A program made the position numbers and the translations under genes. Below are positions 5,527-19,422 of a stretch of 64,000 nucleotides of DNA, piece by piece. Position 1 is the first letter of the stretch, and every line of letters starts with the position of its first letter. The stretch covers positions 20,015 through 84,014 of the forward strand of contig JBPXJQ010000049.1 in assembly GCA_051715345.1 (NCBI GenBank), written 5' to 3'. The notes under the pieces are model-generated. The model made no database searches and had not been told where the DNA came from. It saw nothing but the letters and a program-made list of their open reading frames with translations. The stretch comes from Candidatus Blackallbacteria bacterium. Its GTDB lineage: Bacteria > Cyanobacteriota > Sericytochromatia > UBA7694.

Positions 5527-6013
5527 GGGATATTTCTCCTGTTTGATGTGTTTGAAAATAGGCGGGGTAGCGGTTGTGGATTCGCAACATTAATTCTGGC
5601 AGGGCAGCAGTGACAATCGGGGAAAGCCCCGTGCCTGAGCCAAAGTCGGCCCCTTCGATGCCAAACAGTGTCAGGGCTTGGGGCAATTCGCCCAAGGCCT
5701 TTGCCATTTCAATCGCTTCGGCCACACTGAAGGCATGGGTGGAATAGTGAAAAAAACGTGAGGGAATGACCTGTTCTGAGGCCTCCAGCTCAAAGACCGT
5801 GCCAGGCAGCGCGCCAGAACAGACCGCATCGACCAGCACAACCTGCTCATACCCTTGCCAAGCCGCCATCAAGGAACTGCCTTCACCGCTTTGAACCTGC
5901 AGCTCGACTCCCTGCAAGTCTGACCTTTGAAGCTGTTTGAGTAGAGCTGGGCCGAGGCCATCGTCTTTGCGAAAGCCATTGCCAATGCCGAGGATCAAAA
6001 GCGGTTTTAACAT
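5519..6013 (-). CDS. Hydrogenase maturation endopeptidase (HoxW/HyaD/HycI family)
   Basis: 164 aa with ILGIGNGFRKDDGLG, the GxGN...DDG signature of [NiFe]-hydrogenase large-subunit C-terminal proteases. Confidence 0.85.
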   Translation of the reverse strand: MLKPLLILGIGNGFRKDDGLGPALLKQLQRSDLQGVELQVQSGEGSSLMAAWQGYEQVVLVDAVCSGALPGTVFELEASEQVIPSRFFHYSTHAFSVAEAIEMAKALGELPQALTLFGIEGADFGSGTGLSPIVTAALPELMLRIHNRYPAYFQTHQTGEISHA

Positions 6014-7434
6014 GTTTTGAACTCCCGGATCAGGGTTTGCAGGGATTCTCGGGCGTCGCCAAAGAGCATGCGGCTGTTGTTTAAAAAGAAGAGGGGATTG
6101 TCGATGCCAGCAAACCCTTGGCCCATCGAGCGTTTGAGAATGATCACATTGTGCGCTTTTTCGGCATCCAAGATCGGCATGCCGTAAATCGGGCTGTGGG
6201 GATCGCTGTGGGCCGCCGGATTGACGATATCGTTGGCCCCAATCACCAAACAGACATCGACACGGGGCAGCCGGGAATTGGCCTCTTCCAATTCGAGCAA
6301 TTGTTCATAAGGGACATTGGCCTCTGCCAACAGCACATTCATATGGCCTGGCATGCGTCCCGCAACGGGATGAATCGCGTAAAAGACCTCTGTGCCGCGT
6401 TTGTTTAAGAGTTCAGCCAATTCAAACACAGCGTGTTGGGCCTGGGCCACAGCCATGCCATAACCGGGAATAAACATCACGGTTGCAGCGCTCTCCAGCA
6501 GGTAAAAGGCCTCTTCCCCTGTCAGGGGATGGGCGTGCAGGGCAGGTCCTTTGGCTCCCGCTGCGGCAGCACTGGCGCCAAACTGGCCAAAGAGCACCTG
6601 GGCCAAGCTGCGATTCATGGATTTACACATGATCTGGGTCAGGATCAGACCACTGGCCCCCACCAAACAGCCCGTGACAATTAAGACCTTGTTGAGCAAA
6701 ACAAAACCCACGGCACAGGCTGCCAGTCCAGACAGGGCATTGAGCAGGGAGATCACCACGGGCATGTCGCCTCCGCCAATCGGTAAAACGGCCAAAACCC
6801 CCAAGAGCAGGGCCAAGCCCCCTGCGATCAACAAAATCGAGAGGGGGGGCGAGGGCAAAGCCAAGTAGAGCAATCCCAAGCCCAAGCTCAGACAAAAAAG
6901 CAGGAGATTGATCAGGCCCTGGCCTTGAAAGCGCAGGGGTTTGCCGCTGAGTTTTTCCGAGAGTTTGGCCCAGGCGATCAGGCTGCCGCTGAAGGTGATG
7001 CCGCCAATCAAAACCGAGAGATAACCCGCTCCACTGGATAAGATGCTGAGCGCGGGGCGAATCAAGGTCTCTGCCAGGGCCACCAAGACAGAGGCCAAGC
7101 CCCCCAAACCATTAAACAGGGCCACCATTTCGGGCATCCCCGTCATCGGCACCCGCAGGGCCAAAATCACCCCCAGGGCGGTGCCAATCAAAAGCCCCAA
7201 TAAGATCCACTGAAAATGCAGGCCCGTGCTCAACAGCGTGGCCAAAATGGCCAGCAACATTCCCCCCGCAGAGAGCAAATTGCCTTGGCGGGCAGAGGTT
7301 TGTTTGCCCAGCAATTTAATCCCCAAGACAAAGGCCACCGCAGAAAAAACATATAAAAATTCGCGGGCCAAATTCAGATTCAGATTCAGATTCTGGGCAT
7401 TCAAAAAAGCTAAATTCATGCCAAGCACATTCAT
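6007..7434 (-). CDS. pntB: NAD(P) transhydrogenase subunit beta
   Basis: 475 aa. It has a multi-pass membrane N-terminal half and a C-terminal NADP(H)-binding dIII domain (GYGMAVAQAQHAV, HMNVLLAEANVPY). The start overlaps the pntAB stop. Confidence 0.9.
   Translation of the reverse strand: MNVLGMNLAFLNAQNLNLNLNLAREFLYVFSAVAFVLGIKLLGKQTSARQGNLLSAGGMLLAILATLLSTGLHFQWILLGLLIGTALGVILALRVPMTGMPEMVALFNGLGGLASVLVALAETLIRPALSILSSGAGYLSVLIGGITFSGSLIAWAKLSEKLSGKPLRFQGQGLINLLLFCLSLGLGLLYLALPSPPLSILLIAGGLALLLGVLAVLPIGGGDMPVVISLLNALSGLAACAVGFVLLNKVLIVTGCLVGASGLILTQIMCKSMNRSLAQVLFGQFGASAAAAGAKGPALHAHPLTGEEAFYLLESAATVMFIPGYGMAVAQAQHAVFELAELLNKRGTEVFYAIHPVAGRMPGHMNVLLAEANVPYEQLLELEEANSRLPRVDVCLVIGANDIVNPAAHSDPHSPIYGMPILDAEKAHNVIILKRSMGQGFAGIDNPLFFLNNSRMLFGDARESLQTLIREFKTC
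7373..7394. repeat. Hexanucleotide tandem repeat (TTCAGA)x3.5 inside the pntB 5' coding region, encoding NLNLNLNL
   Basis: The plus strand reads aattcagattcagattcagattctgg. The repeat is in-frame, and the protein shows AQNLNLNLNLARE. Confidence 0.85.
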
Positions 7435-7721
7435 GGTGGTGGTCCCGCAGAATCGTTTTTTTTCTCAAACATTTTTAACATGCGGTCGGTGACCACATAG
7501 CCCCCAACCACGTTAACCGTGGCAAAGATCACCGCAGCTGTGCCCAAGAGGGTCCCCCAGAGGGAATGCCCCGAACCGGCTGCCAAGAGCGCCCCCACCA
7601 CCGTGATCCCTGAAATGGCGTTGGAGCCCGACATCAGGGGGGTGTGTAATTGTGAAGGCACACGGGCAATGAGTTCAAAGCCCAAAAAAGCGGAGAGAAT
7701 GAGGATCAACAGCAGTTCCAT
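7431..7721 (-). CDS. pntAB: NAD(P) transhydrogenase subunit alpha part 2 (membrane dII portion)
   Basis: The internal Met start gives MELLLILILSAFLGFELIARVPSQLHTPLMSGSNAISGITVVGAL..., about 97 aa. This is typical of a split alpha subunit. Its ATG overlaps the pntAA stop at 7721; the table ORF is over-extended to 7829. Confidence 0.8.
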   Translation of the reverse strand: MELLLILILSAFLGFELIARVPSQLHTPLMSGSNAISGITVVGALLAAGSGHSLWGTLLGTAAVIFATVNVVGGYVVTDRMLKMFEKKNDSAGPPP

Positions 7722-8878
7722 CAGCCCAGCCTTCCTTGCCAATAATCTTTGAGTTTGGCCTGTTGCCATTCGCCTTGAGACGTCAGCAAAGCGGCCATGT
7801 ATATTTCGTTTTGGGCATCCAAAACCCATGTTTTTGTTTCTGCTTGCGCTTGGCTATCCGCCAATTCTTTGAGCAAAAAAGACAGATTGGCGGAATACAT
7901 CCGACTGGCATCGTGGGGCACCCGGCCAGCCAAATTGCGGTAGCCGATCAATTTCACGCCTTTGCGTTCGATCAGCTGATCGGCAACGATCCCTTCCACA
8001 TTGCCGCCACTGTCCACGGCCCCATCGACCACAACCGAACCCGGTTTGAGCAGATCCAGCAGTTCTTCTGTGAGGATCAGCGGCGCGCGTTTGCCAAAGA
8101 CCTGCGCGCTGGTGATCACCACATCGCTGTGGGAGACAGCCTCTGCCAAACCTGAGGCCTGTCTTTTGAGTTGTTCTGTACTGACTTCTGTGACATACCC
8201 TTCTGAATTGGTCTCGGTGGGCGAGAGGGCAATTTGAATGGCCCGCGCCCCCAGGGACATAATTTGCTCTGAGGCTTCCGGGCGCAGATCATAGCCCTCG
8301 ACCCGCGCCCCCAGTCGCCGGGCTGTGGCGATGGCCTGCAGGCCCGCAACTCCTGCGCCAATCACCAAGACCCGCGCTGGTTGCAGGGTTCCGGCTGGGG
8401 TGCTCATCATCGGAAAGACCCTGGGCAAATATTCTGCTGCCAACAAAACCGCCACATAGCCAGCCAGACTGGCTTGAGAGGTTAGGGCATCCATGGCTTG
8501 GGCCCGGCTGATGCGGGGAATCCACTCCATGCTCAGGGCCCTGATTTTTTTGTCGAGGCAGACCTGCAAAAGGGCCTGATTCTGAAATGGATTCAGATAG
8601 CTAATATGCAGGGCCTGGGGGGAGACCCAAGCCATTTCTTCGGGTGGGGGTGGATTGAGGCGCAAAATAAGATCCGATTCTGCCAAGATCTGCCGCCGGT
8701 CATTTAACACAGTGGCGCCCATCTCCAGATAGTCTGTGTCGGGAATCTTCAGGCTTGTTGCCAGATCCGCTTCGATCTGCACCGCTAAGCCCAGGGCCCT
8801 GAGTTTTTTGACCTCAGCGGGCAAAAGCGGCACACGGGCCTCTTCGCTCTGACTTTCGCGGGGGACCCCGACGATCAT
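7721..8878 (-). CDS. pntAA: NAD(P) transhydrogenase subunit alpha part 1 (dI, alanine-dehydrogenase-like NAD(H)-binding)
   Basis: 385 aa with a Rossmann VLVIGAGVAGLQAIATARRLGARV. The MIVGVPRES start is typical of PntA. Its ATG (8876-8878) overlaps the hydrogenase large-subunit stop (8875-8877) as ATGA. Confidence 0.9.
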   Translation of the reverse strand: MIVGVPRESQSEEARVPLLPAEVKKLRALGLAVQIEADLATSLKIPDTDYLEMGATVLNDRRQILAESDLILRLNPPPPEEMAWVSPQALHISYLNPFQNQALLQVCLDKKIRALSMEWIPRISRAQAMDALTSQASLAGYVAVLLAAEYLPRVFPMMSTPAGTLQPARVLVIGAGVAGLQAIATARRLGARVEGYDLRPEASEQIMSLGARAIQIALSPTETNSEGYVTEVSTEQLKRQASGLAEAVSHSDVVITSAQVFGKRAPLILTEELLDLLKPGSVVVDGAVDSGGNVEGIVADQLIERKGVKLIGYRNLAGRVPHDASRMYSANLSFLLKELADSQAQAETKTWVLDAQNEIYMAALLTSQGEWQQAKLKDYWQGRLG

Positions 8879-10173
8879 GAGCGCGCCACCTCCAGTTTGA
8901 GGAAATGGGTCGAGCAGGAGATACAGGGGTCGTAATTGCGAATGGCCTGTTCGCAGAGATGTTGCAATTCGGGGTCGGCTTTGTCTAAATAGGTGTGCAA
9001 TAAATGCCGCAAATCTGCTTCGATGGTCTTTTGGTTCTGTGAGGTCGGCGGCACAATTTTGGCGTTAAGAATCAGCCCGTTGGCATCGATCTCGTAGCGG
9101 TGATAACAGATTCCCCTGGGGGCTTCGGTACAGCCATGGCCTTTTCCCGCTTTGACGGGCCAAGACACAAACGCCGCTTCGGGCTTTTGGTAAAGTTCAA
9201 TCAGGCGCAGGGCTTCTTCAAGTGCGTAGAGGGTTTCCAGGCTGCGCACCAAAATGCTTTTAAACGGGTTGTGGCAATGTTCAGCAATCCCCACTTCTTC
9301 TGCCAGGGCTTTGACATTGGGGCTGAGTTGCTCAAAATTGAGGTTGTACCGTGCCATGGGCCCGACAAAATAGGCCCCGTGGCCGGTGTGAATAGAATGC
9401 AATGCAGTTGAGCGGGCCACGTGTTCTTCTTCAAAATGCGCTTCGTATTCAGCAATGGGAATATCCAGGCCCAAATTGGAGACCAAGCGGCCTTCGTGAA
9501 TGGCGTATTCGCTCGGGTGTTTGAGGGCCACGTATTCATATTCCCGCTCAAAGGCTGGGAATTCAAATCCTGCCACCCAGCGCAGGGTGTCTATTGCGGC
9601 TTCTCGCGCCCATTCCAGTTCGGGTTTCAGCGCAAGCAATTCTGTTTTTTCGGGCAGGCGGTAAAAGCCCCCCACCTGTAAATTGATCGGGTGGATTTCC
9701 CGGCCGCCCAAAAGGGTCATCAGGGTATTGCCGATTTTTTTTAAGCGCAAACCGCGTTTGACAGCTTCTGGCGCGACTTTGGCCAGGGCCACTGCGTCTG
9801 GAAAACCGAGAAAATCTGGGGCATGTAACATGTAAATATGCAAAACATGGCTTTCGATCCACTCGCCGCAGTAGATCAGCCTGCGCAAACTGCGCAAAGG
9901 TTCGGGGACTTCAAGTCCGAGAATCGCTTCCATGGCCTGCACGGCCCCCATTTGGTAGGCAATTGGGCAAATGCCGCAGATCCGCGAAGTGATGTCTGGC
10001 GCTTCGCGGTAATCGCGCCCCCGCAAAAAGGCCTCAAAGAAGCGGGGCGGCTCAAAAATTTTCAGTTGGACTTCTTCCAATTCGCTGCCGTTCATTTGGA
10101 TATACAGCGCCCCTTCCCCCTCGACACGGGCCAGGTAATCGACTGAAATGATCCGGCGTTTTTTCTCACTCAT
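8875..10173 (-). CDS. Group 3b [NiFe]-hydrogenase large (alpha) subunit
   Basis: It has the N-terminal RICGICP Ni-binding motif and the C-terminal DPCISCSTH motif followed by a cleavable tail. The start is placed at the Met ([10 protein letters not shown]) 2 bp after the small-subunit stop; the table ORF extends to 10248. Confidence 0.9.
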
Positions 10174-10930
10174 GCTGCAGGCTCTCCTCTCGAAAGGCGG
10201 GGGCATTGCTATTAAAGCCCCGGTATAATCGGACCAATTCGGCTTCACTGACCCCCAATGATTTAAACGCTTGGCTCAATGCCGCCGGATGGGGGGAATC
10301 CGAGGGGCCAAAACAGCCGTAGCAGCCCCGTTGGAATGCCGGGCAAATCGCGCCACAGCCCGCGTGGGTCACTGGGCCCAAACAGGGGATTCCCTGTGAG
10401 ACCATCACACAGACCGTGCCCCTGAGTTTACATTCATGACAGACACTTTCGCTGGGCAAATGGGGCTTGCGCCGGTTTAACAGGGCGTTGATCAGCTCCA
10501 GCAATTGGTTTTTATTGATCGGGCAGCCCCGCAATTCAAAATCGACTTTGATATGCTCGGAGATCGCCGTGGATTGGCTGAGGGTTTGAATGTATTCGGG
10601 CCGGGCGTAGACCATGCGCATAAAATCTTCGACAGCCTGAAAATTGCGCAGGGCCTGAATCCCCCCAGCGGTGGCACAGGCCCCAATGCTGATCACCAAA
10701 GCCGATTGGGCCCGAATGGCTTGGATCCGCTCCAAATCGTGGGGGGTGGTGATTGAGCCCTCGACCAGAGAAATGTCATAGGGGCCCGCCACCACCGCCC
10801 GGCTGGCCTCTGGAAAATGGGCAATTTCAAGGGCATCTGCCACCATCAGCAATTCGTCTTCACAGTCCAATAAACTGAGCTGGCAGCCATCACAGGAGGC
10901 AAATTTCCAAACAGCCAATTTGGGTTTCAT
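10166..10930 (-). CDS. Group 3b [NiFe]-hydrogenase small (delta) subunit
   Basis: 254 aa with the [16 protein letters not shown] Fe-S motif of group 3 small subunits and additional Cys clusters C-terminally. Confidence 0.88.
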
Positions 10931-11770
10931 TTAGACCTCCCGGGTATTCAAAAGGGATTGGACCTTGTCATAGCGAAAGACGGGGCCGTCTTTGCAAATA
11001 AAGTGGGGACCGAATTGGCAGTGGCCACACAGCCCCACGGCACATTGCATATTGCGCTCCAAAGAGACATAGATCTGTTCGGGCTTGAGGCCCTTTTCCA
11101 AGAAGGTGTGAGCACTGTAGCGCATCATGATTTCGGGGCCACAGATCATCGCCAAGGTCTGATCGGGATCCAGGTTTTGCGCTTGGATCAGCGAAGTTAC
11201 CACCCCTACCCTGCCCTGCCAACTCTGTGTGGCTTGATCGAGGGTGATATGCACGGCGATCTCTGCGCCTGTTTGCCAGGACAGCAGTTCGTCGGCATAG
11301 AGGATTTCGGCATGTTGTCGGGCACCATAGAGCAAGGTCAGCGAACGGATTTCTGAGCGCATCGCCAGGGCCGCATAAATGGCAGGTCGAACAGGAGCCA
11401 AACCCAACCCTCCGGCCACAATCACCAGATCTTTGCCTTTGGCTTTGTGTAAGGGCCAGACGGAGCCAAAGGGCCCGCGCAGCCCCAGTGATTGCCCTGG
11501 TTTGAGTTCTGCCAAGGCGTTGGTTACAGCCCCCACTTTGCGAATGGTGTGGATTTGCGCCGAGGTGTTTTCGGGCGAGCCCGAGATTGAAATGGGCACT
11601 TCTCCCACCCCAAAGACATAGAGCATATTAAACTGCCCTGGCCGAAACGGGGGGATCGTCTGGACACGCGTTTGTACTTCGGGCTTTTCACAGCTCAGGC
11701 TAAAGGTCTGGGGGGTTTCCCAGCGAAAATCGCTGATACGCCAGACCTCTGGCAAAAGCGCTTGGCTCAT
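10931..11770 (-). CDS. Sulfhydrogenase gamma-like subunit (FAD/NAD(P)-binding, [2Fe-2S]; PyrK/AsrB-like)
   Basis: 279 aa with a ferredoxin-NADP-reductase-like fold and a C-terminal [15 protein letters not shown] cluster. Its ATG overlaps the upstream gene's stop as ATGA. Confidence 0.85.
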
Positions 11771-12228
11771 GTTTGACCTCCATACAGATCCAATAATTGC
11801 AAGCGCGTGGCCTGCAGTCGTTCTACCATCATTTGCCCAAAGCGCTTCTGAATCAGATACCCCATTTCATGGTCAGTTTCACATTGCTCCAAAAAGGCTT
11901 TGGCATCAAAGACCAGAATTTGGCTGTCTTCAAGCGCCTGGGCATCAAAATGCCATTTATACGGGGGATAGAGCCAAGACCAGCCCAGCAGATCCCCTTC
12001 ATGCAGGGTTTGGATCCGCACGCAGCCCCGCTGCGAGGAGAACATTTCAATCGCCACCGTACCCGATTGAATCAGGTAAAACGCTTCCGCTTTGCCGCCC
12101 AATTTAAACACAAAGTCGTTGGCCGCAAAGCTCCGCAGGTGTGCGCAGCGAATCAGGGCCTGCAGGTAGGGGGTGGGCAAATCTTTAAAATGGCGTTGTT
12201 TGCGGATCGCGTCCTCTTTAATTTCCAT
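11767..12228 (-). CDS. Cyclic-nucleotide-binding-domain-only protein (Crp/Fnr effector-domain-like, no HTH)
   Basis: 153 aa with a beta-roll [22 protein letters not shown]...[12 protein letters not shown]. The phosphate-binding cassette is degenerate, with no RTA/RSA. The gene is embedded between the beta and gamma hydrogenase genes, with an ATGA overlap downstream and a 5-bp gap upstream. Confidence 0.7.
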
Positions 12229-13360
12229 GGGGGATCTCCTCTGCTTTTGTTTGTAATGCGTTCAATGCTTCAATTTCTGAGGTGAGATCGATTCCCACCG
12301 GGCACCAGGTAATACAGCGGCCACAGCCGACACAGCCTGATTGGTCAAATTGCTCCTGCCAAAAGGCCAGTTTGTGGCTGATCCACTGTCGGTAGCGTGC
12401 GCCTGGGCTTTGGCGAATCGGCCGACCCGCGGTAAGTGTAAAATTCAATGAAAAACAGGAGTCCCACTCACGCCAGCGCTCACTGCTTGTGCCTGCCAAG
12501 TCGGTCACTTCTTGAACCCCTGAACAAAAACAGGTGGGGCAAACCAGTGTGCAATTGCTGCAACTCAGGCAGCGCTCCCCCACGTCTTTCCAATGGGGGC
12601 TTTCATACCCGCTTTTTAAGGCCGCGCTGGCCTGCTGGGGATTCAAACTCCGGCCCATCTGCGCTGCCGCCGCTGCCCACAACTCACTTTCTTTTTCAAG
12701 CAGTGTTTCTGGGGCCTGGCTCGGGCTGCATTGCTGGAGCAGGGCTGCCCCTTTGGCGCTGCCAGCTCGGGCCAGATAACAGGGGTCTGCGGTATCAAGT
12801 ATTTCAGTGATGGCCAGATCGTAACCGGGCCCGGCTGCTGGGCCTGCCTCCATCGACACACAAAAACAGGTATTGCCGGGCTCGGTGCAGTTCACGGCCA
12901 AGATAAAGATCTGCTCCCGTCTTTCCCGGTAAAAATCATCGCTGTAAGGGCCTTCGAGAAAGACCCTGTCTTGGATTTGGATCGCTTTCAGTTCACAGCC
13001 CCGCACGCCAATCATGGCGTATTTGGGCACAACCTGATCGGGGGCTGTGATCTGCAAACCACGGCTGTTTTGTTCCGCTTTCATCAACAATTGCCGAGGC
13101 GGGTAGAGGTATTTTTTCCAAGCCTGGGGGCCCACAACATAGCCAAACAAGGCTGCATCGTCTCGGGAACGCAAGCGGTAAGTGCCTTTTTCTTGAATGT
13201 CGCCGATACCCATCGGCAGATCTGCTGTACTCTGAATGGCGTCGTAGACAATGGCCTGATCCCTGACCACGGGACCCACGGTCTGGTACCCAGCGGCCTG
13301 CAATTGGCTGAGCAGTTGATCCAGTTGTTTGCGCTGGAGAAGTACGACTTCTGTTTGCAT
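12218..13360 (-). CDS. Sulfhydrogenase beta-like subunit ([4Fe-4S]; AsrA-like)
   Basis: It contains [16 protein letters not shown] and [15 protein letters not shown] ferredoxin motifs. The start is placed at MQTEVVLLQ, preceded by a GGGGGA RBS; the table ORF extends to 13411. Confidence 0.85.
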
Positions 13361-13533
13361 CTTCGCTGATTCCCCCGTTTCTCGGCTCCTTTGAGGAAAC
13401 ACGATCCTCATCTACAGCATGGCTGATTATCCCTTTATTATCTTTGATAGATCTCCAGTATGAAATTGATCTTGATCAGGAAAAAATCAAATAATCCAGA
13501 TAAAATAGTGATAAAGCGTTAAACTTAAAATAC

Positions 13534-14586
13534 ATGAAACCCCAGACACGAAATTATGCCGGTGTACACAGCAATAATGCGCAATTTGCGGGATTTTCTT
13601 GGGCATTTACCCGAAATATTCGCGCAGAGCTTGTTATTTTTACTGGGCTGACGGGATATCTTGAAACCCTGACAGATCCGTCTTATCAGGGGCAAATTGT
13701 GGTGTTTACCTCTCCCCAAGTGGGCAATTATCTGCCTGATTTGACCCGGATGCAATCCCCCCGGATTCAAGTGGCGGGTGTGGTGGCCAGGGCCTATAGC
13801 CCGCCCCCAGAGAGCCCAAACCAAATCACTTTGGCCCAGCTTTTGCTCACTGCAAAGATCCCCGCCCTGATGGGGGTCGACACCCGCAGTTTGACTTTGG
13901 CGCTGCGCCAAGACTCCCAAACAAGACGCGAAGTTGAGCTGATAACGGTGCCGGGAGCGCCGATTGAAAATCCCGCCTTGCCCCATCCCGCTCAGGTCGC
14001 AATTCAGGCCCCGTATTTGCACAGAGGTGGCGAAAAAACGGTGGTGCTGGTGGATTGTGGCGTCAAAAACCGGCTTTTAGACCTGCTGCTGCAGGCGGGT
14101 TTAAGTGTGTGGCAGGTTCCCTGGGACTTTGATTGGCGGGATTTGCCCCATCAGGGCCTGTTGCTATCTAATGGCCCAGGCAATCCCGCTGAGTGTGAAA
14201 CCACAATTTCGATTTTAAAATCCGGGCTCAATCCGCAGATCCCTGTTTTGGGCATTTGTCTCGGGGCACAATTGCTCGCCCATGCGGTGGGTGCAAGCAC
14301 CGCCCCCCTGCCATTTGGTCACCGGGGGGCCAATCATCCCTGCCGCGATCGTTTGAGTGGGGCCTGTTATATCACCGCGATGAATCATGGCTATGCCATT
14401 GTTTCGGAGAGTTTGCCCCCGGAATGGCAGGTCTGGTTTGAACATCTCCACGATGGCAGTTGTGCAGGATTAAAACACCGTGTTTTTCCTTGGCGGGGGG
14501 TGCAATTTCATCCGGAGGGCTGCCCAGGCCCCACAGACACGGCATTTATCCTTGCGGATTTTCTGAGCGAGGTTCTCGATGCCTGA
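13534..14586 (+). CDS. carA: Carbamoyl-phosphate synthase small (glutaminase) subunit
   Basis: 350 aa with N-terminal GYLETLTDPSYQGQIVVFTSPQVGNY, the GICLGAQLL catalytic Cys region and the C-terminal FHPEGCPGP. Confidence 0.85.
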   Translation: MKPQTRNYAGVHSNNAQFAGFSWAFTRNIRAELVIFTGLTGYLETLTDPSYQGQIVVFTSPQVGNYLPDLTRMQSPRIQVAGVVARAYSPPPESPNQITLAQLLLTAKIPALMGVDTRSLTLALRQDSQTRREVELITVPGAPIENPALPHPAQVAIQAPYLHRGGEKTVVLVDCGVKNRLLDLLLQAGLSVWQVPWDFDWRDLPHQGLLLSNGPGNPAECETTISILKSGLNPQIPVLGICLGAQLLAHAVGASTAPLPFGHRGANHPCRDRLSGACYITAMNHGYAIVSESLPPEWQVWFEHLHDGSCAGLKHRVFPWRGVQFHPEGCPGPTDTAFILADFLSEVLDA

Positions 14587-17275
14587 ATCCGTTTTGGTGC
14601 TGGGATCGGGTCCGATTCAAATTGGCCAAGCAGGGGAGTTTGACTATGCCGGGGCCCAGGCCCTCAAAGCGCTCAAAGAAAGGGGGTTCCGCACCCTTTT
14701 GTTAAATTCGAATCTGGCCAGTGCCCAGACGCTGGGGGTTTTTGCCGATCGCGTGTTTGCCCTGCCACTCACACCCGCCTCGGTACAAGCTATTTTGGCA
14801 AGTGAAACCCCGATCGGGGTTTTGGCGGGATTTGGCGGCCAATCGGCCCTCAATTTGGCCTTGGAACTCGATCAAGCGGGGCTGTTAAAGCGCTTGCCCC
14901 TGCTCGGCACCGCTCTGGAGACCCTGATGATCTGTGAAGATCGCTTGAAGTTTTTCAGATTTTGTCAGAATCTGGGTTTGCCGGTCCCCAAGACCTATGT
15001 TTTGTCGGATCTCTCGGCCTTTAATTCTGAATTAAACGCAACAGACGCCTTTCCCTTGCTGCAGCGCAAAAGTTTTGCCTTGGGGGGCCAAGGCGCGGTC
15101 TTTTATCCCAACTTGGCGGCATTGTGGGCAGATCCCGGCCTCAAAGATCGTTTGAACCCAGCGGCACTTTTAAACGCGCCACTTTTGCTCGAAGAAGATC
15201 TCAGGGGCTGGCAAGAAATCGAGTTTGAAGTTTTGGCGGATGCTGCGGGCAATCAATTGGTGGTCTGTGCCACTGAAAACATAGACCCAATGGGCATTCA
15301 CACGGGGGACAGCTATGTGGTCACGCCGCCGATGACTTTGAGTGACGCCAGCTATTTTGGGCTGCGGGCGGCTGCCCTGAAATTGGTCTCCGCCCTGAAA
15401 TTGGTCGGGGAATGCAATGTGCAATTTGCTTACCATCCCAAAAGTGACGCCTTTCGCCTGATCGAATTGAACCCCCGTTTGAGCCGCAGTTCTGCGTTGG
15501 CCTCCAAAGCCACGGGTTATCCGATTGCCTATGTGGCCGCCCAATTGGCCTTGGGTGGGCTTTTGCCTGACATTGTCAATCCACTAACGGGGGTCACCTC
15601 CTGTTTTTTTGAACCGGCGCTGGACTATGTTGTGGTCAAAGCCCCCCGTTGGCAATTTGACAAATTTCCAGGGGCCGATCGGCATTTGGGGCCCGAGATG
15701 AAATCCATCGGTGAAAACATGGGGATCGGAGAAGATTTTGCTTCTGCTTTTGCCAAAGCATGGGCCCTGACCCAAACTCAGAAACTGCCTCATGGGGCAA
15801 ATGGGTCAAATTGGTCAATGACTGCCTTGCGGCAAGAATTGGCCTGTCCCACAGATCTGCGCATGTCGGCCCTCTTTGCGGCGCTGGAACAGGGCCTGCC
15901 TTTGGCCGAAATAGAGGCCTTAACAGGGTTTTCTGGCTGGTTTTTGCAGGCCTTTCGAGATTTGGCACCCAGGCTCAAAACGGGCCATCTCGGTTTCTGG
16001 GGCTTTCGCCAAATCGACACCCTGGCAGGGGAATTTCAGGCCCAGACGGCCTATCTCTATCGCGGCCAAGCCCTTGAATTCACCTTCGGGCCAGGTCCCT
16101 GGGTCTTGATTCTGGGCAGTGGGCCCTATGGGATTGGTTGCTCCGTCGAATTTGACTATTGCTGCGTCAGCGCGATTTATGCCCTGCAAGCAGCGGGTTA
16201 TAAAGTAGCCATGATGAATTCAAACCCCGAAACCCTGAGCACAGATTGTGATTTGGCGGATGCCCTGATCTTTGAACCTCTGTTGCCTGAAAGCCTCAAT
16301 GCAGTGATGGCGGCGCTTCGACCTGTGGGTGTCTTGGCTTCGCTGGGCGGGCAAACACCCCAGAATTTATTGCAGGTCTTGCCCCGGCACTGGCCCTTTT
16401 GGGGCACGCCAGTGGGCCAAATTTTAAAAGCTGAAAATCGCCTGGCATTTGCCCTGGCCCTGGATCAATTGCAGATCCCCCAGGCCCCTTGGGCCAAAGT
16501 GACATCCTTGGCTGACGCTTTGGCGTTTGGTCAAAAGGTCGGTTATCCGCTGATCTACCGCCCTGGTTTTGTCTTGGGGGGGGGCGGTATGCAGGTGATT
16601 GAAAACGCCCAAGCCTTAGAAAAATGGGGAGACCATCTTCAGCTCAACGGCCCTTTACCGCGCACAGAAGGGGCCTTGCTGAACCGCTTTTTGGCGGAGG
16701 CCAAAGAGTTTGAACTCGATGGCATCGCCCGTTTGGGGCAATTGGAGTATTACCTCTTTTCAGAAAATCTTGAACCCTCAGGCATTCATTCCGGGGATTC
16801 TCACCATGTCTTCCCGGCCCAAAGCCTGTCCCCTGAGGTGCGCGCCCAGGCTTTGACTTATGCCTTAAAATTGGCACAATCGTTTGAACTCCACGGTTTG
16901 TTTAATCTCCAGTTTTTTTACCATCAAGGCGCGGTTTTGCTGATCGAAGCCAATCTGCGCGCTTCCCGCAATCTGCCTTTTTTGAGCCATGTTTCGGGCC
17001 AGAACCTGGTCAGTTTGGCGATTGAGCGCCTGCTTGCGAGCGCCCCCTTGGCAGAAGCCCCTGTCGAAATCAGTGCAGATCAGGTCGGGATCCGGGTGCC
17101 AACGTTTTCTTGGGAGCGCATGGTCGGGGCCAAACGGGAATTGGGGGTGGAAATGAAGGCCACTGGCGAGTTTTGTCTGCTGGCGGACAGCTTTGATAAC
17201 GTGCTTCAGCTGTGTTATAATTTGCCAGATTTTTGTGCCTTCACACCGTCTTGGCGCCTCTCCAAAGGAGAATGA
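14579..17275 (+). CDS. carB: Carbamoyl-phosphate synthase large subunit, short form lacking the C-terminal allosteric (MGS-like) domain
   Basis: 898 aa. It has two ATP-grasp halves (GSGPIQIGQAGEFDYAG; LILGSGPYGIGCSVEFDY). The protein ends directly after the second-half PxFSWERMVGAKRELGVEMKATGEF segment. Canonical CarB is about 1070 aa. Confidence 0.88.
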   Translation: MPESVLVLGSGPIQIGQAGEFDYAGAQALKALKERGFRTLLLNSNLASAQTLGVFADRVFALPLTPASVQAILASETPIGVLAGFGGQSALNLALELDQAGLLKRLPLLGTALETLMICEDRLKFFRFCQNLGLPVPKTYVLSDLSAFNSELNATDAFPLLQRKSFALGGQGAVFYPNLAALWADPGLKDRLNPAALLNAPLLLEEDLRGWQEIEFEVLADAAGNQLVVCATENIDPMGIHTGDSYVVTPPMTLSDASYFGLRAAALKLVSALKLVGECNVQFAYHPKSDAFRLIELNPRLSRSSALASKATGYPIAYVAAQLALGGLLPDIVNPLTGVTSCFFEPALDYVVVKAPRWQFDKFPGADRHLGPEMKSIGENMGIGEDFASAFAKAWALTQTQKLPHGANGSNWSMTALRQELACPTDLRMSALFAALEQGLPLAEIEALTGFSGWFLQAFRDLAPRLKTGHLGFWGFRQIDTLAGEFQAQTAYLYRGQALEFTFGPGPWVLILGSGPYGIGCSVEFDYCCVSAIYALQAAGYKVAMMNSNPETLSTDCDLADALIFEPLLPESLNAVMAALRPVGVLASLGGQTPQNLLQVLPRHWPFWGTPVGQILKAENRLAFALALDQLQIPQAPWAKVTSLADALAFGQKVGYPLIYRPGFVLGGGGMQVIENAQALEKWGDHLQLNGPLPRTEGALLNRFLAEAKEFELDGIARLGQLEYYLFSENLEPSGIHSGDSHHVFPAQSLSPEVRAQALTYALKLAQSFELHGLFNLQFFYHQGAVLLIEANLRASRNLPFLSHVSGQNLVSLAIERLLASAPLAEAPVEISADQVGIRVPTFSWERMVGAKRELGVEMKATGEFCLLADSFDNVLQLCYNLPDFCAFTPSWRLSKGE

Positions 17276-19422
17276 GTTCAAACGTGGATTTTGAGCCCCC
17301 CCACAGCGATGATTGGATTGAATTGACCCAGTTGGAAGACCTCCTGCCGCCTGCCAGCGTGGCGGACCCCGCGTCCCCACTTTTGCCGCCGGCCCCTGAG
17401 CGCTATACCTTTATGGGCACCGTTGGCAAAGGCGCCATGGGTGAGGTTTTGCTGGCCCAAGATGTGCATCTGCGTCGCAAGGTGGCGTACAAAAAAATTC
17501 TGCCGCAGATGGCTGTCAGTCAGCAGGTGTTGAGTCGCTTTTTTGCCGAGGCGCAAATCACGGCTCAACTCGATCACCCGGCCATTATTCCGGTTTACAA
17601 CCTGGAAGTCAGTCCCGAAGGCCAAATCGCCTATTCGATGAAGCTGATTCAAGGCAAAACCCTCAAAGAGCTGATCAGCGAAGCCCGCGAGCAATACCAA
17701 GCCGGTCAAACCCCCGATCCCCAGCACAGTCTGGATACCTTGCTCAGGCATTTCCTCAAAGTCTGCGATGCCCTGTATTTTGCCCATATCAAAGGGGTGA
17801 TTCACCGCGATCTCAAGCCCGCCAATATCATGGTGGGCATGTACCACGAGGTCTATGTGATGGACTGGGGCATCGCCCGAATTATGGGGGGGGCCGAAGC
17901 CCGGATCGATGACGAGGTGGTCAGGTTGATTCATCCCGATGCCGATGCGCCCCCGCTCGAGCGCACCCAAATGGGCCAAATCATGGGCACGCCGCGTTAT
18001 CTTTCACCGGAGCAGGCCGCCGGAAAAAACGATTTGCTCGATGGCCGCAGTGATCTCTTTGCCCTGGGCCTGATCCTGTTTGAATTGGTGACGCTCAAAC
18101 CGGCGTTTACAGCCAAGACCCAAATCGAACTCCTCAAAAAAATCCTCAAAGCCGAAAAAGAGCCGCTGGAACACAGCCAAGCGGGTGTCAAAATTGCCCC
18201 AGAATTAGAGGCGATTATTCACAAAGCCACCGCCCGGCGCAAAGAGCATCGCTACGCTGATGTGGCCGAATTGGCCGAAGATCTGCGCCGCTATTTGCGG
18301 GGCGAAGCGGTGCTTGCCAGCCCAGATCGTTTTTGGCAAAAGGCCCGCCGCTATATGAGGCAACACCGGCAAGCCACGCTGCTGGGGCTGTCTCTGCTGG
18401 TTTTTCTCTCGCTCAGCGGTGCGGCTGGGTTATTGGCCTTGCGTAGCCAGGCCATGTTGGCCGCACGGGCTCACGAACAGCGTCTGGGGGGCTTTCTCGA
18501 AACCGTGGCAGAGCGCAGCCGTTTGCTCGACCGGCAGTTTTTTCTGACCGAGATGGCCCTGGAAAGTCTGTCGGCGATTGTCACTGAGGCCCTGTTTCAG
18601 GGGGAGCGCAGCGGCCAACGTCTGTATCTGGACGCGGATTATGCCCAAGCGCCGCCCCCAGATTTTGGCTTTGCGCCCCGCTATGGCAAAGCGATTAGCA
18701 CGGCCTGGCCGGTGTTTAAATTGGCCCCTGGCAGTGATTTAAACGCCCTGCGTGGGCAAATGCAGAAGCTCAATCGCCTGCATTTGGATCTGGGCCGCCT
18801 CTTTTTACGCGGGCAATTGGGCAATTTGCCTGTGCCGCCACCCGCGCAATTGCGCCAGAAGATAGTGACCGGGGAAGGCACCCTCTTGCGTTGGGTCTTT
18901 GCGGGGCTCAAAGAGGGCCTGATGTTTGCCTATCCCGGCAAAGGGGGCTATCCCGCTGATTATGATCCCAGGCAACGCCCCTGGTACAAACAAAGTGTTC
19001 AGACCCGGGGTCTGCACTGGCAAAAACCCTATTTGGATGTGCAGGGCCAAGGCCTGATGCTGACCTGCACCCGTGCACTGTATGACTATAACGAGCGCTT
19101 TTTGGGTGTCGCAGGGGCTGAAATTGCCCTCAAAGACATTCTCAAATTATTGCCCCTGCCCGATGCCCGCGCCCGCAAGGTCTATTTGCTCAATCAGGCC
19201 ATGCAGGTGGTTGCCGAACAGAGCACAGGCCAAGCTGCCAAGACCATGGGCGCGGCAGGCCTCAGTTTGGCTTTTCCCTGGCCCGAAGCCCTGCCCGCTT
19301 TGCGTTCCCGCGACAGTGGCTTTGTCCACCAGGGCCAAACGCTGTTGGTCTTTTACCGCCTGGATATTCTCGGTTGGACCTATGTGGTCGAAGCGGATCA
19401 GGCTTTGGAGCTGCAGCCATGA
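17272..19422 (+). CDS. Transmembrane Ser/Thr protein kinase with C-terminal extracytoplasmic Cache-like sensor domain
   Basis: It has a Gly loop GKGAMG, VAYKK, a catalytic loop HRDLKPANIM and DWG. There is one TM segment (LLGLSLLVFLSLSGAAGLLAL), followed by a domain with the YDPRQRPWY Cache motif. The start overlaps the carB stop; the table ORF starts at 17233. Confidence 0.85.
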   Translation: MSSNVDFEPPHSDDWIELTQLEDLLPPASVADPASPLLPPAPERYTFMGTVGKGAMGEVLLAQDVHLRRKVAYKKILPQMAVSQQVLSRFFAEAQITAQLDHPAIIPVYNLEVSPEGQIAYSMKLIQGKTLKELISEAREQYQAGQTPDPQHSLDTLLRHFLKVCDALYFAHIKGVIHRDLKPANIMVGMYHEVYVMDWGIARIMGGAEARIDDEVVRLIHPDADAPPLERTQMGQIMGTPRYLSPEQAAGKNDLLDGRSDLFALGLILFELVTLKPAFTAKTQIELLKKILKAEKEPLEHSQAGVKIAPELEAIIHKATARRKEHRYADVAELAEDLRRYLRGEAVLASPDRFWQKARRYMRQHRQATLLGLSLLVFLSLSGAAGLLALRSQAMLAARAHEQRLGGFLETVAERSRLLDRQFFLTEMALESLSAIVTEALFQGERSGQRLYLDADYAQAPPPDFGFAPRYGKAISTAWPVFKLAPGSDLNALRGQMQKLNRLHLDLGRLFLRGQLGNLPVPPPAQLRQKIVTGEGTLLRWVFAGLKEGLMFAYPGKGGYPADYDPRQRPWYKQSVQTRGLHWQKPYLDVQGQGLMLTCTRALYDYNERFLGVAGAEIALKDILKLLPLPDARARKVYLLNQAMQVVAEQSTGQAAKTMGAAGLSLAFPWPEALPALRSRDSGFVHQGQTLLVFYRLDILGWTYVVEADQALELQP

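Follow-up and report, generated by a model that had tools for sequence, protein, structure and literature searches.

A cyclic nucleotide-binding-domain protein encoded between the beta and gamma genes of bacterial group 3b [NiFe]-hydrogenases as a candidate ligand-sensing accessory module of the enzyme

The 64,000-nucleotide stretch of Candidatus Blackallbacteria DNA analysed here (contig JBPXJQ010000049.1; this whole stretch is called the window, and coordinates are window positions unless a locus is named) carries genes for a [NiFe]-hydrogenase of bacterial group 3b, and between the genes of its subunits beta and gamma stands a gene for a 153-amino-acid protein with a cyclic nucleotide-binding (CNB) domain. 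We propose, with moderate confidence, that this CNB protein is a dimeric, ligand-sensing accessory or regulatory module that docks on the beta/gamma part of the enzyme. Most likely it works on the enzyme and not on DNA, because the synteny is conserved, translation of the neighbouring genes is coupled, the CNB domain is found fused to beta, and HoxI, a CNB protein of another hydrogenase, provides a mechanistic precedent. It is probably a ligand-sensing accessory module rather than an obligatory structural subunit, because relatives of the gene adjoin Hdr/Mvh, Etf and other hydrogenase genes and some Streptomyces operons do without it.

In soil, sediment and host-associated bacteria, few cytoplasmic hydrogenases are as widespread as those of group 3b, to which fermentative H2 production and redox balancing in hypoxia are ascribed; they have been modelled on the four-subunit archaeal enzyme. 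The CNB protein that accompanies the bacterial enzymes is widespread and unstudied. If it is a ligand-sensing subunit, these enzymes would be regulated at the protein level by a signal that nobody has identified, and purification or heterologous expression that omits the CNB gene may alter activation or cofactor behaviour, as with HoxI.

The group 3b set of four genes (alpha, delta, beta and gamma) is complete in the window, as judged from Pfam, NCBIfam and PDB matches. Best PDB matches are sulfhydrogenase 1 beta for the beta subunit (9nez_B, 1.9e-33) and the group 3b alphas 5yxy and 9nez_D for the alpha subunit (about 1e-66). The best NCBIfam matches of all four subunits are Shy/Hyd families, with scores far under the equivalog cutoffs (ShyA, for example, 274 against 700), and the window enzyme is therefore of the bacterial group 3b. 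The stand-alone CNB open reading frame (ORF) that the initial annotation had placed between beta and gamma is a real gene, as seen from the reading frame itself, a GAGGAG Shine-Dalgarno sequence 7 nt 5' of its ATG, the Pfam match and its homologues. As to its junctions, the ATGA described there is correct, the TGA of the CNB gene overlapping the ATG of gamma at 11767-11770; the supposed 5-bp gap to beta is in fact an overlap of 11 nt, with the beta stop codon TAA (12220-12218) lying inside the CNB gene. The CNB protein is predicted to be co-translated with beta and gamma, the electron-transfer (diaphorase-like) subunits.

This arrangement extends far beyond the window. The closest relatives, in metagenome-assembled genomes (MAGs) of Candidatus Sericytochromatia, are 83-96% identical and keep the gene order unchanged. 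Contexts that were read directly gave the order beta-CNB-gamma-delta-alpha for two MAGs, one deltaproteobacterial and one of Tectimicrobiota, and for an unbinned contig of 237 kb; the same five genes follow one another on a Burkholderia savannae plasmid, in Frankia and in KSB1, and in plasmid or chromid records of Rhodococcus, Pandoraea and Streptomyces rimosus. A scan of genome contigs with the single protein as query yielded 6 loci, and a profile-driven scan of metagenome contigs yielded 80, with CNB proteins 41-50% identical to that of the window. Both beta and gamma flank the CNB gene in 62 of these 80 metagenome loci, and a further 7 show one flank, the other lying beyond the contig end, which brings the loci consistent with the group 3b order to 69; in the remaining 11 the CNB gene is located elsewhere. 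Sampling in the reverse direction, with loci picked through beta and long contigs as the only criterion, gave a CNB gene between beta and gamma in three of three cases. Conserved synteny, which the initial annotation had named as a check on its proposal, is thus strongly positive in several phyla, and the CNB gene belongs as a rule to bacterial group 3b clusters, as their fifth gene, and is not the peculiar insertion into a four-subunit operon for which it had been taken.

The junction is conserved as well. Beta stop and CNB start overlap or lie no more than 20 nt apart in 63 of 73 loci, and an overlap of exactly 14 nt (11 nt in the window) recurs in 25 of the 73, in diverse lineages, which suggests that the coding sequence in the overlap or the coupling of translation is under constraint. 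Moreover, the CNB protein diverges like beta and gamma and faster than delta and alpha (median identity to the window proteins across loci: CNB 45%, beta 47%, gamma 49%, delta 66%, alpha 61%), and so behaves like a component of the electron-transfer module.

The strongest sign that the CNB domain may act physically with beta comes from one lineage of natural fusions, in which the CNB domain is joined to the C-terminus of beta. An exhaustive profile search returned a protein of 542 amino acids (P0151) in which Fer4_22 is followed by cNMP_binding, and a search with P0151 added 11 clusters, giving a total of 12 distinct 90%-identity clusters of the same architecture and of 539-546 amino acids (P0151, P0271-P0281). 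Their identity to P0151 is 49-76%; they were found in assemblies of ENA, JGI and Logan, on contigs as long as 153 kb. A short linker takes the place of the overlap; the reading frame runs on through the junction and Ile stands where the CNB initiator Met would be, so no frameshift artefact is involved. To judge from these sequences, the fusion is genuine and has been kept through substantial divergence. In the operon of L100/L101 a second, diverged free CNB gene comes after the fusion, and after it gamma, delta, alpha, HycI and HypF; the free paralogue in L100 has GYCWIVPPFQCRFDA where the family motif GWSWLxPPYxWHFDA (see below) stands, and two CNB domains in one operon would be consistent with a dimeric unit. 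At another locus (L102, 6001-8437) the fusion lies 3' of a Pyr_redox_2 flavoprotein gene and is followed by gamma only, without delta or alpha; a module of beta, gamma and CNB evidently can exist without a hydrogenase. The fusions tie the CNB domain to the beta/gamma module, not to the [NiFe] dimer, and they offer a ready construct for structural work, just as the invariant aromatic motif offers clear targets for mutagenesis.

Two further kinds of composite protein were considered and set aside. P0282 (720 amino acids), an apparent triple fusion of beta, CNB and gamma, leaves the family consensus at the CNB C-terminus (RLQATRCRCSMSTGS...) and then becomes gamma-like again; it is probably a frameshifted assembly or a gene-calling artefact. 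Tandem CNB-CNB proteins with the same motif had been a candidate sign of a functional dimer in the operon, and their contexts gave no support: the two whose contexts are readable do not stand beside hydrogenase genes, and one adjoins a resistance-nodulation-division (RND) efflux system.

The CNB protein itself consists of a single domain. Pfam cNMP_binding (PF00027) matches residues 32-119 over profile positions 2-89 of 89 (E=4e-14; 52.8 bits against a cutoff of 27.5), and Pfam found neither a helix-turn-helix (HTH) nor any further domain in the 153 amino acids. An AlphaFold2 model built from 60 homologues (predicted local distance difference test, pLDDT, 86.4; predicted template modelling score, pTM, 0.81) shows the canonical CNB beta-roll together with a short B-helix and, at residues 120-149, a long C-helix. 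Foldseek against the PDB returned solely generic CNB domains (CRP, CNG channels, DNR, MtbCRP, GlxR, PKG and the orphan 3mdp), with a probability of 1.00 to those of CRP, PKG, CNG and DNR. In hhalign the stretch E-R137-L-Q-A-T141-R142 of the window protein pairs with R-R123-L-Q-V-T127-S128 of CRP, and the C-terminal LLDLYG with the CRP hinge FLDVTG. The long C-helix of CRP/FNR-type proteins is present in model and alignment, and dimerisation is predicted. The predicted protein is the complete sensor and dimerisation half of a CRP/FNR-type regulator, stopping where the DNA-binding domain would start. That it has no DNA-binding domain had been noticed from the start, and both the missing HTH in Pfam and the end of the protein exactly at the CRP hinge agree; together with synteny, coupling and the in-frame beta-CNB fusions, this favours the enzyme-associated role over that of a transcription factor, as the initial annotation had suggested.

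Comparison with known regulators leads to the same picture. E. coli CRP, P. aeruginosa DNR, M. tuberculosis CRP and GlxR share with the window protein the beta-roll, the B-helix and the long C dimerisation helix; DNR is its top PDB sequence match (8e-06), and Foldseek TM scores to DNR, MtbCRP and GlxR are 0.74-0.80. CRP, however, has an HTH and contacts cAMP through Glu72, Arg82 and Ser83, whereas the window protein is without an HTH and has all three residues replaced, and its gene stands inside an enzyme operon and not, as in CRP/FNR factors, as a stand-alone regulator gene. Two single-domain CNB proteins of similar size from structural genomics, 3mdp (Gmet_1532) and 3gyd (Mfla_1926), are about 22% identical to it (3mdp: Foldseek TM 0.76 by query and 0.88 by target, rmsd 2.0); we know of no link of either to a hydrogenase.

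An end exactly at the CRP hinge would also be expected of a decaying crp or fnr gene that has lost its DNA-binding half and is carried passively in the operon. This explanation is scarcely credible, and conservation and dN/dS refute it. A word-indexed search found 1786 homologues at E<=1e-3, almost all of 150-160 amino acids, and an exhaustive profile search found 902 representatives of 50%-identity clusters at E<=1e-30; homologues in the hundreds to thousands at this one length, 14 invariant columns in the family alignment and a position conserved across phyla are hard to expect of a remnant. Compared with four orthologues, the CNB gene has a dN/dS of 0.06-0.11 and thus evolves under strong purifying selection. 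A truncated Crp gene had been named at the outset as something that would speak against the enzyme-associated role, and the conserved length, the near-invariant motif and a dN/dS of about 0.08 dispose of it; if a truncation occurred at all, it was ancient and its product was retained under selection.

The conservation is concentrated in what would be the phosphate-binding cassette. In place of the canonical G-E-L...R-[ST]-A of cAMP and cGMP receptors, residues G82-A96 read GWSWLxPPYxWHFDA. In an alignment of 121 homologues, G82, W83, S84, W85, L86, P89 and W92 are identical in all 121, and Y90, H93, F94, D95 and A96 are at least 90% conserved; beyond the loop no homologue departs from D119, G123, R137 and L138, and conservation of T141, R142, Q144, D147, Y149, C28 and C116 reaches about 97% or more. 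The letters of the cassette and the loss of its canonical residues had been read correctly in the initial annotation, but the word degenerate does not fit a substitute motif that is near-invariant in 121 homologues: judged by its conservation, the cassette is repurposed or replaced. The doubt then raised about cAMP and cGMP binding is well founded, and canonical binding appears unlikely, because the ribose-contacting Glu and the phosphate-contacting Arg-Ser/Thr are missing family-wide.

What could be said for a true cAMP or cGMP receptor, which would place the hydrogenase under second-messenger control, is that the Pfam cNMP_binding match is above threshold, that the counterparts of CRP R123, T127 and S128 have been kept and that the cassette loop has a conserved basic R/K91. 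Such a receptor is nevertheless very improbable: the Glu that would hold the ribose 2'-OH is W83 in every one of the 121 homologues, the Arg-Ser/Thr-Ala triad reads H93/F94-D95 with only the terminal Ala (A96) retained, an acidic Asp stands at the phosphate contact in 115 of the 121, and even HoxI is thought to bind NADPH and not a cyclic nucleotide.

A conserved pocket between beta-roll and C-helix is likely, and it is this pocket, not one partner, that is the common denominator of the CNB family. Under the proposed mechanism the CNB protein, probably paired through its C-helix into a dimer, would dock on the beta/gamma module, and a small molecule other than cAMP or cGMP would be bound in a pocket made up of the aromatic loop GWSWLxPPYxWHFDA and, from the CRP-like C-helix, of R137, T141 and R142. 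Our working guess for the ligand is a pyridine nucleotide or a flavin-like aromatic. Its binding would tune enzyme activation or electron flow, in a manner comparable to the NADPH-activation site of HoxI. As a separate observation, most family members have C28 together with C111-x4-C116-x2-D119-H120 near the B-helix (the window protein has Ala at 111), and no Cys or His of the set C28/C111/C116/H120 is strictly invariant; a redox or metal site at this cluster would be possible.

In those parts of the literature that deal with it, HoxI is described as a stand-alone CNB protein of the C. necator H16 soluble hydrogenase that sits as a homodimer on the HoxFU diaphorase (PMC3702609, PMC3189943, citing Burgdorf 2005); it gives the enzyme an NADPH activation site and is lost at high salt and alkaline pH (PMC3189943, PMC3702609). 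Like the window protein, HoxI (PHG093, group 3d, Cupriavidus necator / Ralstonia eutropha) has about 150-170 amino acids, a CNB domain only and no output domain, and both are encoded within the structural cluster of a cytoplasmic, pyridine-nucleotide-linked [NiFe]-hydrogenase. Orthology of the two was considered and is ruled out by BLASTP and hhalign, which leave only generic CNB-domain similarity. HoxI from pHG1 and the window protein are 23% identical over 86 amino acids in BLASTP, the family profile scores HoxI in hhalign (50.2, 94%) about as it scores E. coli CRP (48.1, 92.6%), and HoxI was not among the plasmid tblastn matches at E<=1e-3, though the plasmids searched include pHG1. The canonical G-E-L is retained in HoxI, which is without the GWSWLxPPYxWHFDA motif. 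It goes with the complex I-like HoxFU, whereas the window protein goes with AsrAB/HydBG-like beta and gamma subunits, which are not homologous to HoxFU, and hoxI follows hoxW at the end of its cluster, whereas the window gene lies between beta and gamma. By analogy, HoxI is the closest functional precedent and offers the best model of a possible mode of action for the window protein.

Several observations weigh against an accessory module docked on beta/gamma. Of the 80 close relatives, with identities of 41-50%, eleven lie outside group 3b operons by the Pfam domains of their neighbours (Table 1), and in a neighbour-joining tree they are interspersed among the operon members and form no separate clade, a pattern more in keeping with a sensor that can change partners than with a subunit whose interface is fixed. 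In Streptomyces sp. NBC_01340 the beta and gamma genes adjoin directly, no CNB gene separates them and the sole family member lies 11 kb off; the gene is therefore dispensable in cis. The basic R/K91 conserved in the cassette loop would still allow phosphate binding of some kind. The group 3b enzymes that have been characterised (P. furiosus SHI/SHII, M. smegmatis Hyh) have been described with four subunits. Sequence searches with CNB, beta and alpha found no CNB-like chain in the archaeal SHI entries 9nez and 9nf0 or in any other PDB hydrogenase. In the literature we found passing mentions only, and no functional, structural or comparative study of the group 3b CNB protein. The AlphaFold2 model of a natural beta-CNB fusion, finally, has both domains confident (pLDDT 84, pTM 0.67, without predicted aligned error) and is neutral on an interface.

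A solved structure holding a CNB subunit was thus sought among the PDB matches and not obtained, the sequence searches giving archaeal four-subunit enzymes only and Foldseek generic CNB domains only. The archaeal sulfhydrogenases (P. furiosus SHI/SHII, T. kodakarensis; 9nez, 9nf0, 5yxy) have homologous alpha, beta, gamma and delta subunits and a matching gene order, and it is the fifth gene that sets the bacterial clusters apart from the archaeal four-subunit enzymes. In published descriptions of bacterial clusters it has been named a "small transcriptional regulator" (Frankia, PMC11879354), "HoxI" (an alphaproteobacterial methanotroph, PMC12319191) or a cNMP-binding-domain protein (Rhodococcus equi, PMC13332983). 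If the protein is a ligand-sensing subunit, labels such as Crp/Fnr family transcriptional regulator or HoxI mislead.

The relatives outside group 3b operons show a recurring association with anaerobic iron-sulfur (FeS) and flavin redox complexes; those at L031, L039, L044, L048, L052, L068, L079, L086 and L093 share the motif of the window protein. Since relatives adjoin hydrogenase genes of groups 1 and 4 as well as Hdr/Mvh and Etf/FixC genes, and since some Streptomyces group 3b operons lack the gene and have a relative 11-20 kb away, the stoichiometric subunit of the initial annotation is not borne out. Streptomyces sp. SAT1 has a 37%-identical member that retains GWSWHFPPYVWH and stands among genes for USP, CBS, PNPOx, GAF kinase and response regulator proteins. 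A wider reading, which we advance only tentatively, would take the GWSW..PP CNB proteins for widespread, unrecognised, output-less sensors on FeS/flavin redox enzymes that gate activity post-translationally through a metabolite other than a cyclic nucleotide; their targets, proposed with the same reserve, would include group 3b beta/gamma, Mvh/Hdr, Etf/FixC and other hydrogenases. If so, bacterial group 3b hydrogenases, including those of the fermentative Hyh type, would be five-component allosteric enzymes, and the CNB domain would have been recruited to a hydrogenase diaphorase a second time, independently of HoxI.

The same scattered contexts invite the question whether the CNB protein is tied to an enzyme at all. 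It might be a free signalling protein that acts in trans, either by forming heterodimers with a full-length CRP/FNR protein through the C-helix or by relaying a redox or ligand signal to several hypoxia-type redox enzymes, and its encoding inside the operon would then give feedback. A C-terminus that aligns with the CRP dimerisation helix and ends at the hinge would suit such a role, as would relatives beside many redox complexes, the mixing of off-operon and in-operon members in the tree, Streptomyces relatives that lie away from the hydrogenase in an island of USP/CBS/GAF-kinase/response-regulator genes, and the name given to the Frankia protein (PMC11879354). The operon promoter in the window, moreover, has an FNR/CRP-type box with class II geometry, its centre about 42 nt 5' of the transcription start inferred from consensus, and an identical box lies upstream of beta in the Sericytochromatia relatives L002, L003 and L004. 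As a general feature of the operon this box had to be dropped: it is present in the Sericytochromatia clade and, overall, 5' of beta in just 5 of 62 loci; the window holds 8 such boxes, with 3.0 expected by chance. A covalent fusion to the FeS subunit beta that has been kept for long is hard to square with a partner-switching regulator of a DNA-binding protein, and so is a place between structural genes, with overlapping stop and start codons, that is conserved across phyla. We therefore consider a free signalling protein unlikely.

Association with many unrelated FeS/flavin complexes would equally suit a generic helper, an assembly or maturation factor that binds nascent beta/gamma or other FeS/flavin subunits transiently, aids cofactor insertion or holds the module until the hydrogenase dimer docks, and is absent from the mature enzyme. 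Purified group 3b enzymes have been reported as four-subunit (R. equi, PMC13332983), and two off-operon relatives (L093, L031) adjoin HycI-type maturation proteases, both of which would agree with this role. However, no chaperone role is known for the CNB fold, its permanent fusion to beta argues for lasting presence in the complex, the conserved pocket-like motif and the CRP-like C-helix contacts point to ligand sensing, and HoxI, the sole characterised analogue, belongs to the mature enzyme. An assembly factor is in our view improbable. A ligand-sensing accessory module on beta/gamma is the reading that we prefer.

The features of the window and of the loci referred to are collected in Table 1. 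The window ORF of beta has 397 amino acids as listed, and tblastn alignments of homologues begin at query residues 20-30; with homology setting in only near residue 20, translation may in truth start from the ATG at about 13360. The ORF of alpha reaches a GTG at 10248, and homology starts only at the ATG at 10176 (MSEKKRR...). The TGA of alpha overlaps the ATG of pntAA in an ATGA (8875-8878), and the pnt genes therefore extend the same translationally coupled string, so that the NADP-linked hydrogenase and the transhydrogenase appear to form a single operon.

Table 1. Features of the window and of further loci; positions outside the window are those of the locus named
Feature	Position	Strand	Description
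beta	12218..13411	minus	Fer4_22 4Fe-4S dicluster protein, HydB/ShyB/AsrA type; best NCBIfam match ShyB/HydB
CNB gene	11767..12228	minus	153 amino acids, ATG start; Pfam PF00027; between beta and gamma
gamma	10931..11770	minus	NAD_binding_1 and DHODB_Fe-S_bind (FAD/NAD(P), [2Fe-2S]); HydG/ShyC/AsrB type; best NCBIfam match ShyC/HydG
delta	10166..10930	minus	hydrogenase small subunit; Oxidored_q6; best NCBIfam match ShyD/HydD
alpha	8875..10176	minus	[NiFe] large subunit; NiFeSe_Hases; best NCBIfam match ShyA/HydA
pntAA, pntAB, pntB	6007..8878 (pntAA 8878-7721, pntAB ~7721-7431, pntB 7434-6007)	minus	proton-translocating NAD(P) transhydrogenase
putative operon promoter	13437..13479	minus	sigma-70-like TTCATA(16)GATAAT, 13464-13437; consensus match only
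FNR/CRP-type box TTGATCTTGATCAG	13466-13479	plus	9 of 10 matches to TTGAT-N4-ATCAA; upstream of beta
beta-CNB fusion loci	L100/L101 6001-8184; L016		fusions in otherwise normal group 3b operons
Streptomyces loci	L014 6974-7426; L098 3778-4179 and 13315-17548		family member in a stress or hypoxia-type island apart from the hydrogenase
L039, L031			HdrA, MvhD, Mvh-type [NiFe]-hydrogenase; CNB gene last
L044			CNB gene, then HdrC, HdrB, HdrA
L068, L079, L086			CNB gene adjoins HdrA-MvhD fusion, GcvH-like and OsmC-like proteins
L048			group 4-type membrane hydrogenase module
L052			fused EtfBA and FixC-like flavoprotein
L093			group 1 hydrogenase exported by twin-arginine translocation (Tat), with its protease
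L097			one unrelated context
L089			contig too short for annotation

Some features of the surroundings may be added. The pnt genes 3' of alpha occur only in the Sericytochromatia relatives L001-L004, and a HycI-type maturation protease gene, which is placed after alpha in most other lineages, is absent from the window operon. In Burkholderia savannae a phosphoenolpyruvate synthase gene lies directly 5' of the five-gene group 3b cluster (L015, 2392-4848); the phosphoenolpyruvate synthase-like MSMEG_3934 is among the most hypoxia-induced products of the DosR regulon in M. smegmatis (bioRxiv 10.1101/2023.09.11.557286). Divergent from the hydrogenase operon, the window has carA-like and carB-like ORFs at 13534-17275, called from their translations alone, and next to them, at 17233-19422, an ORF of 729 amino acids with protein-kinase motifs.

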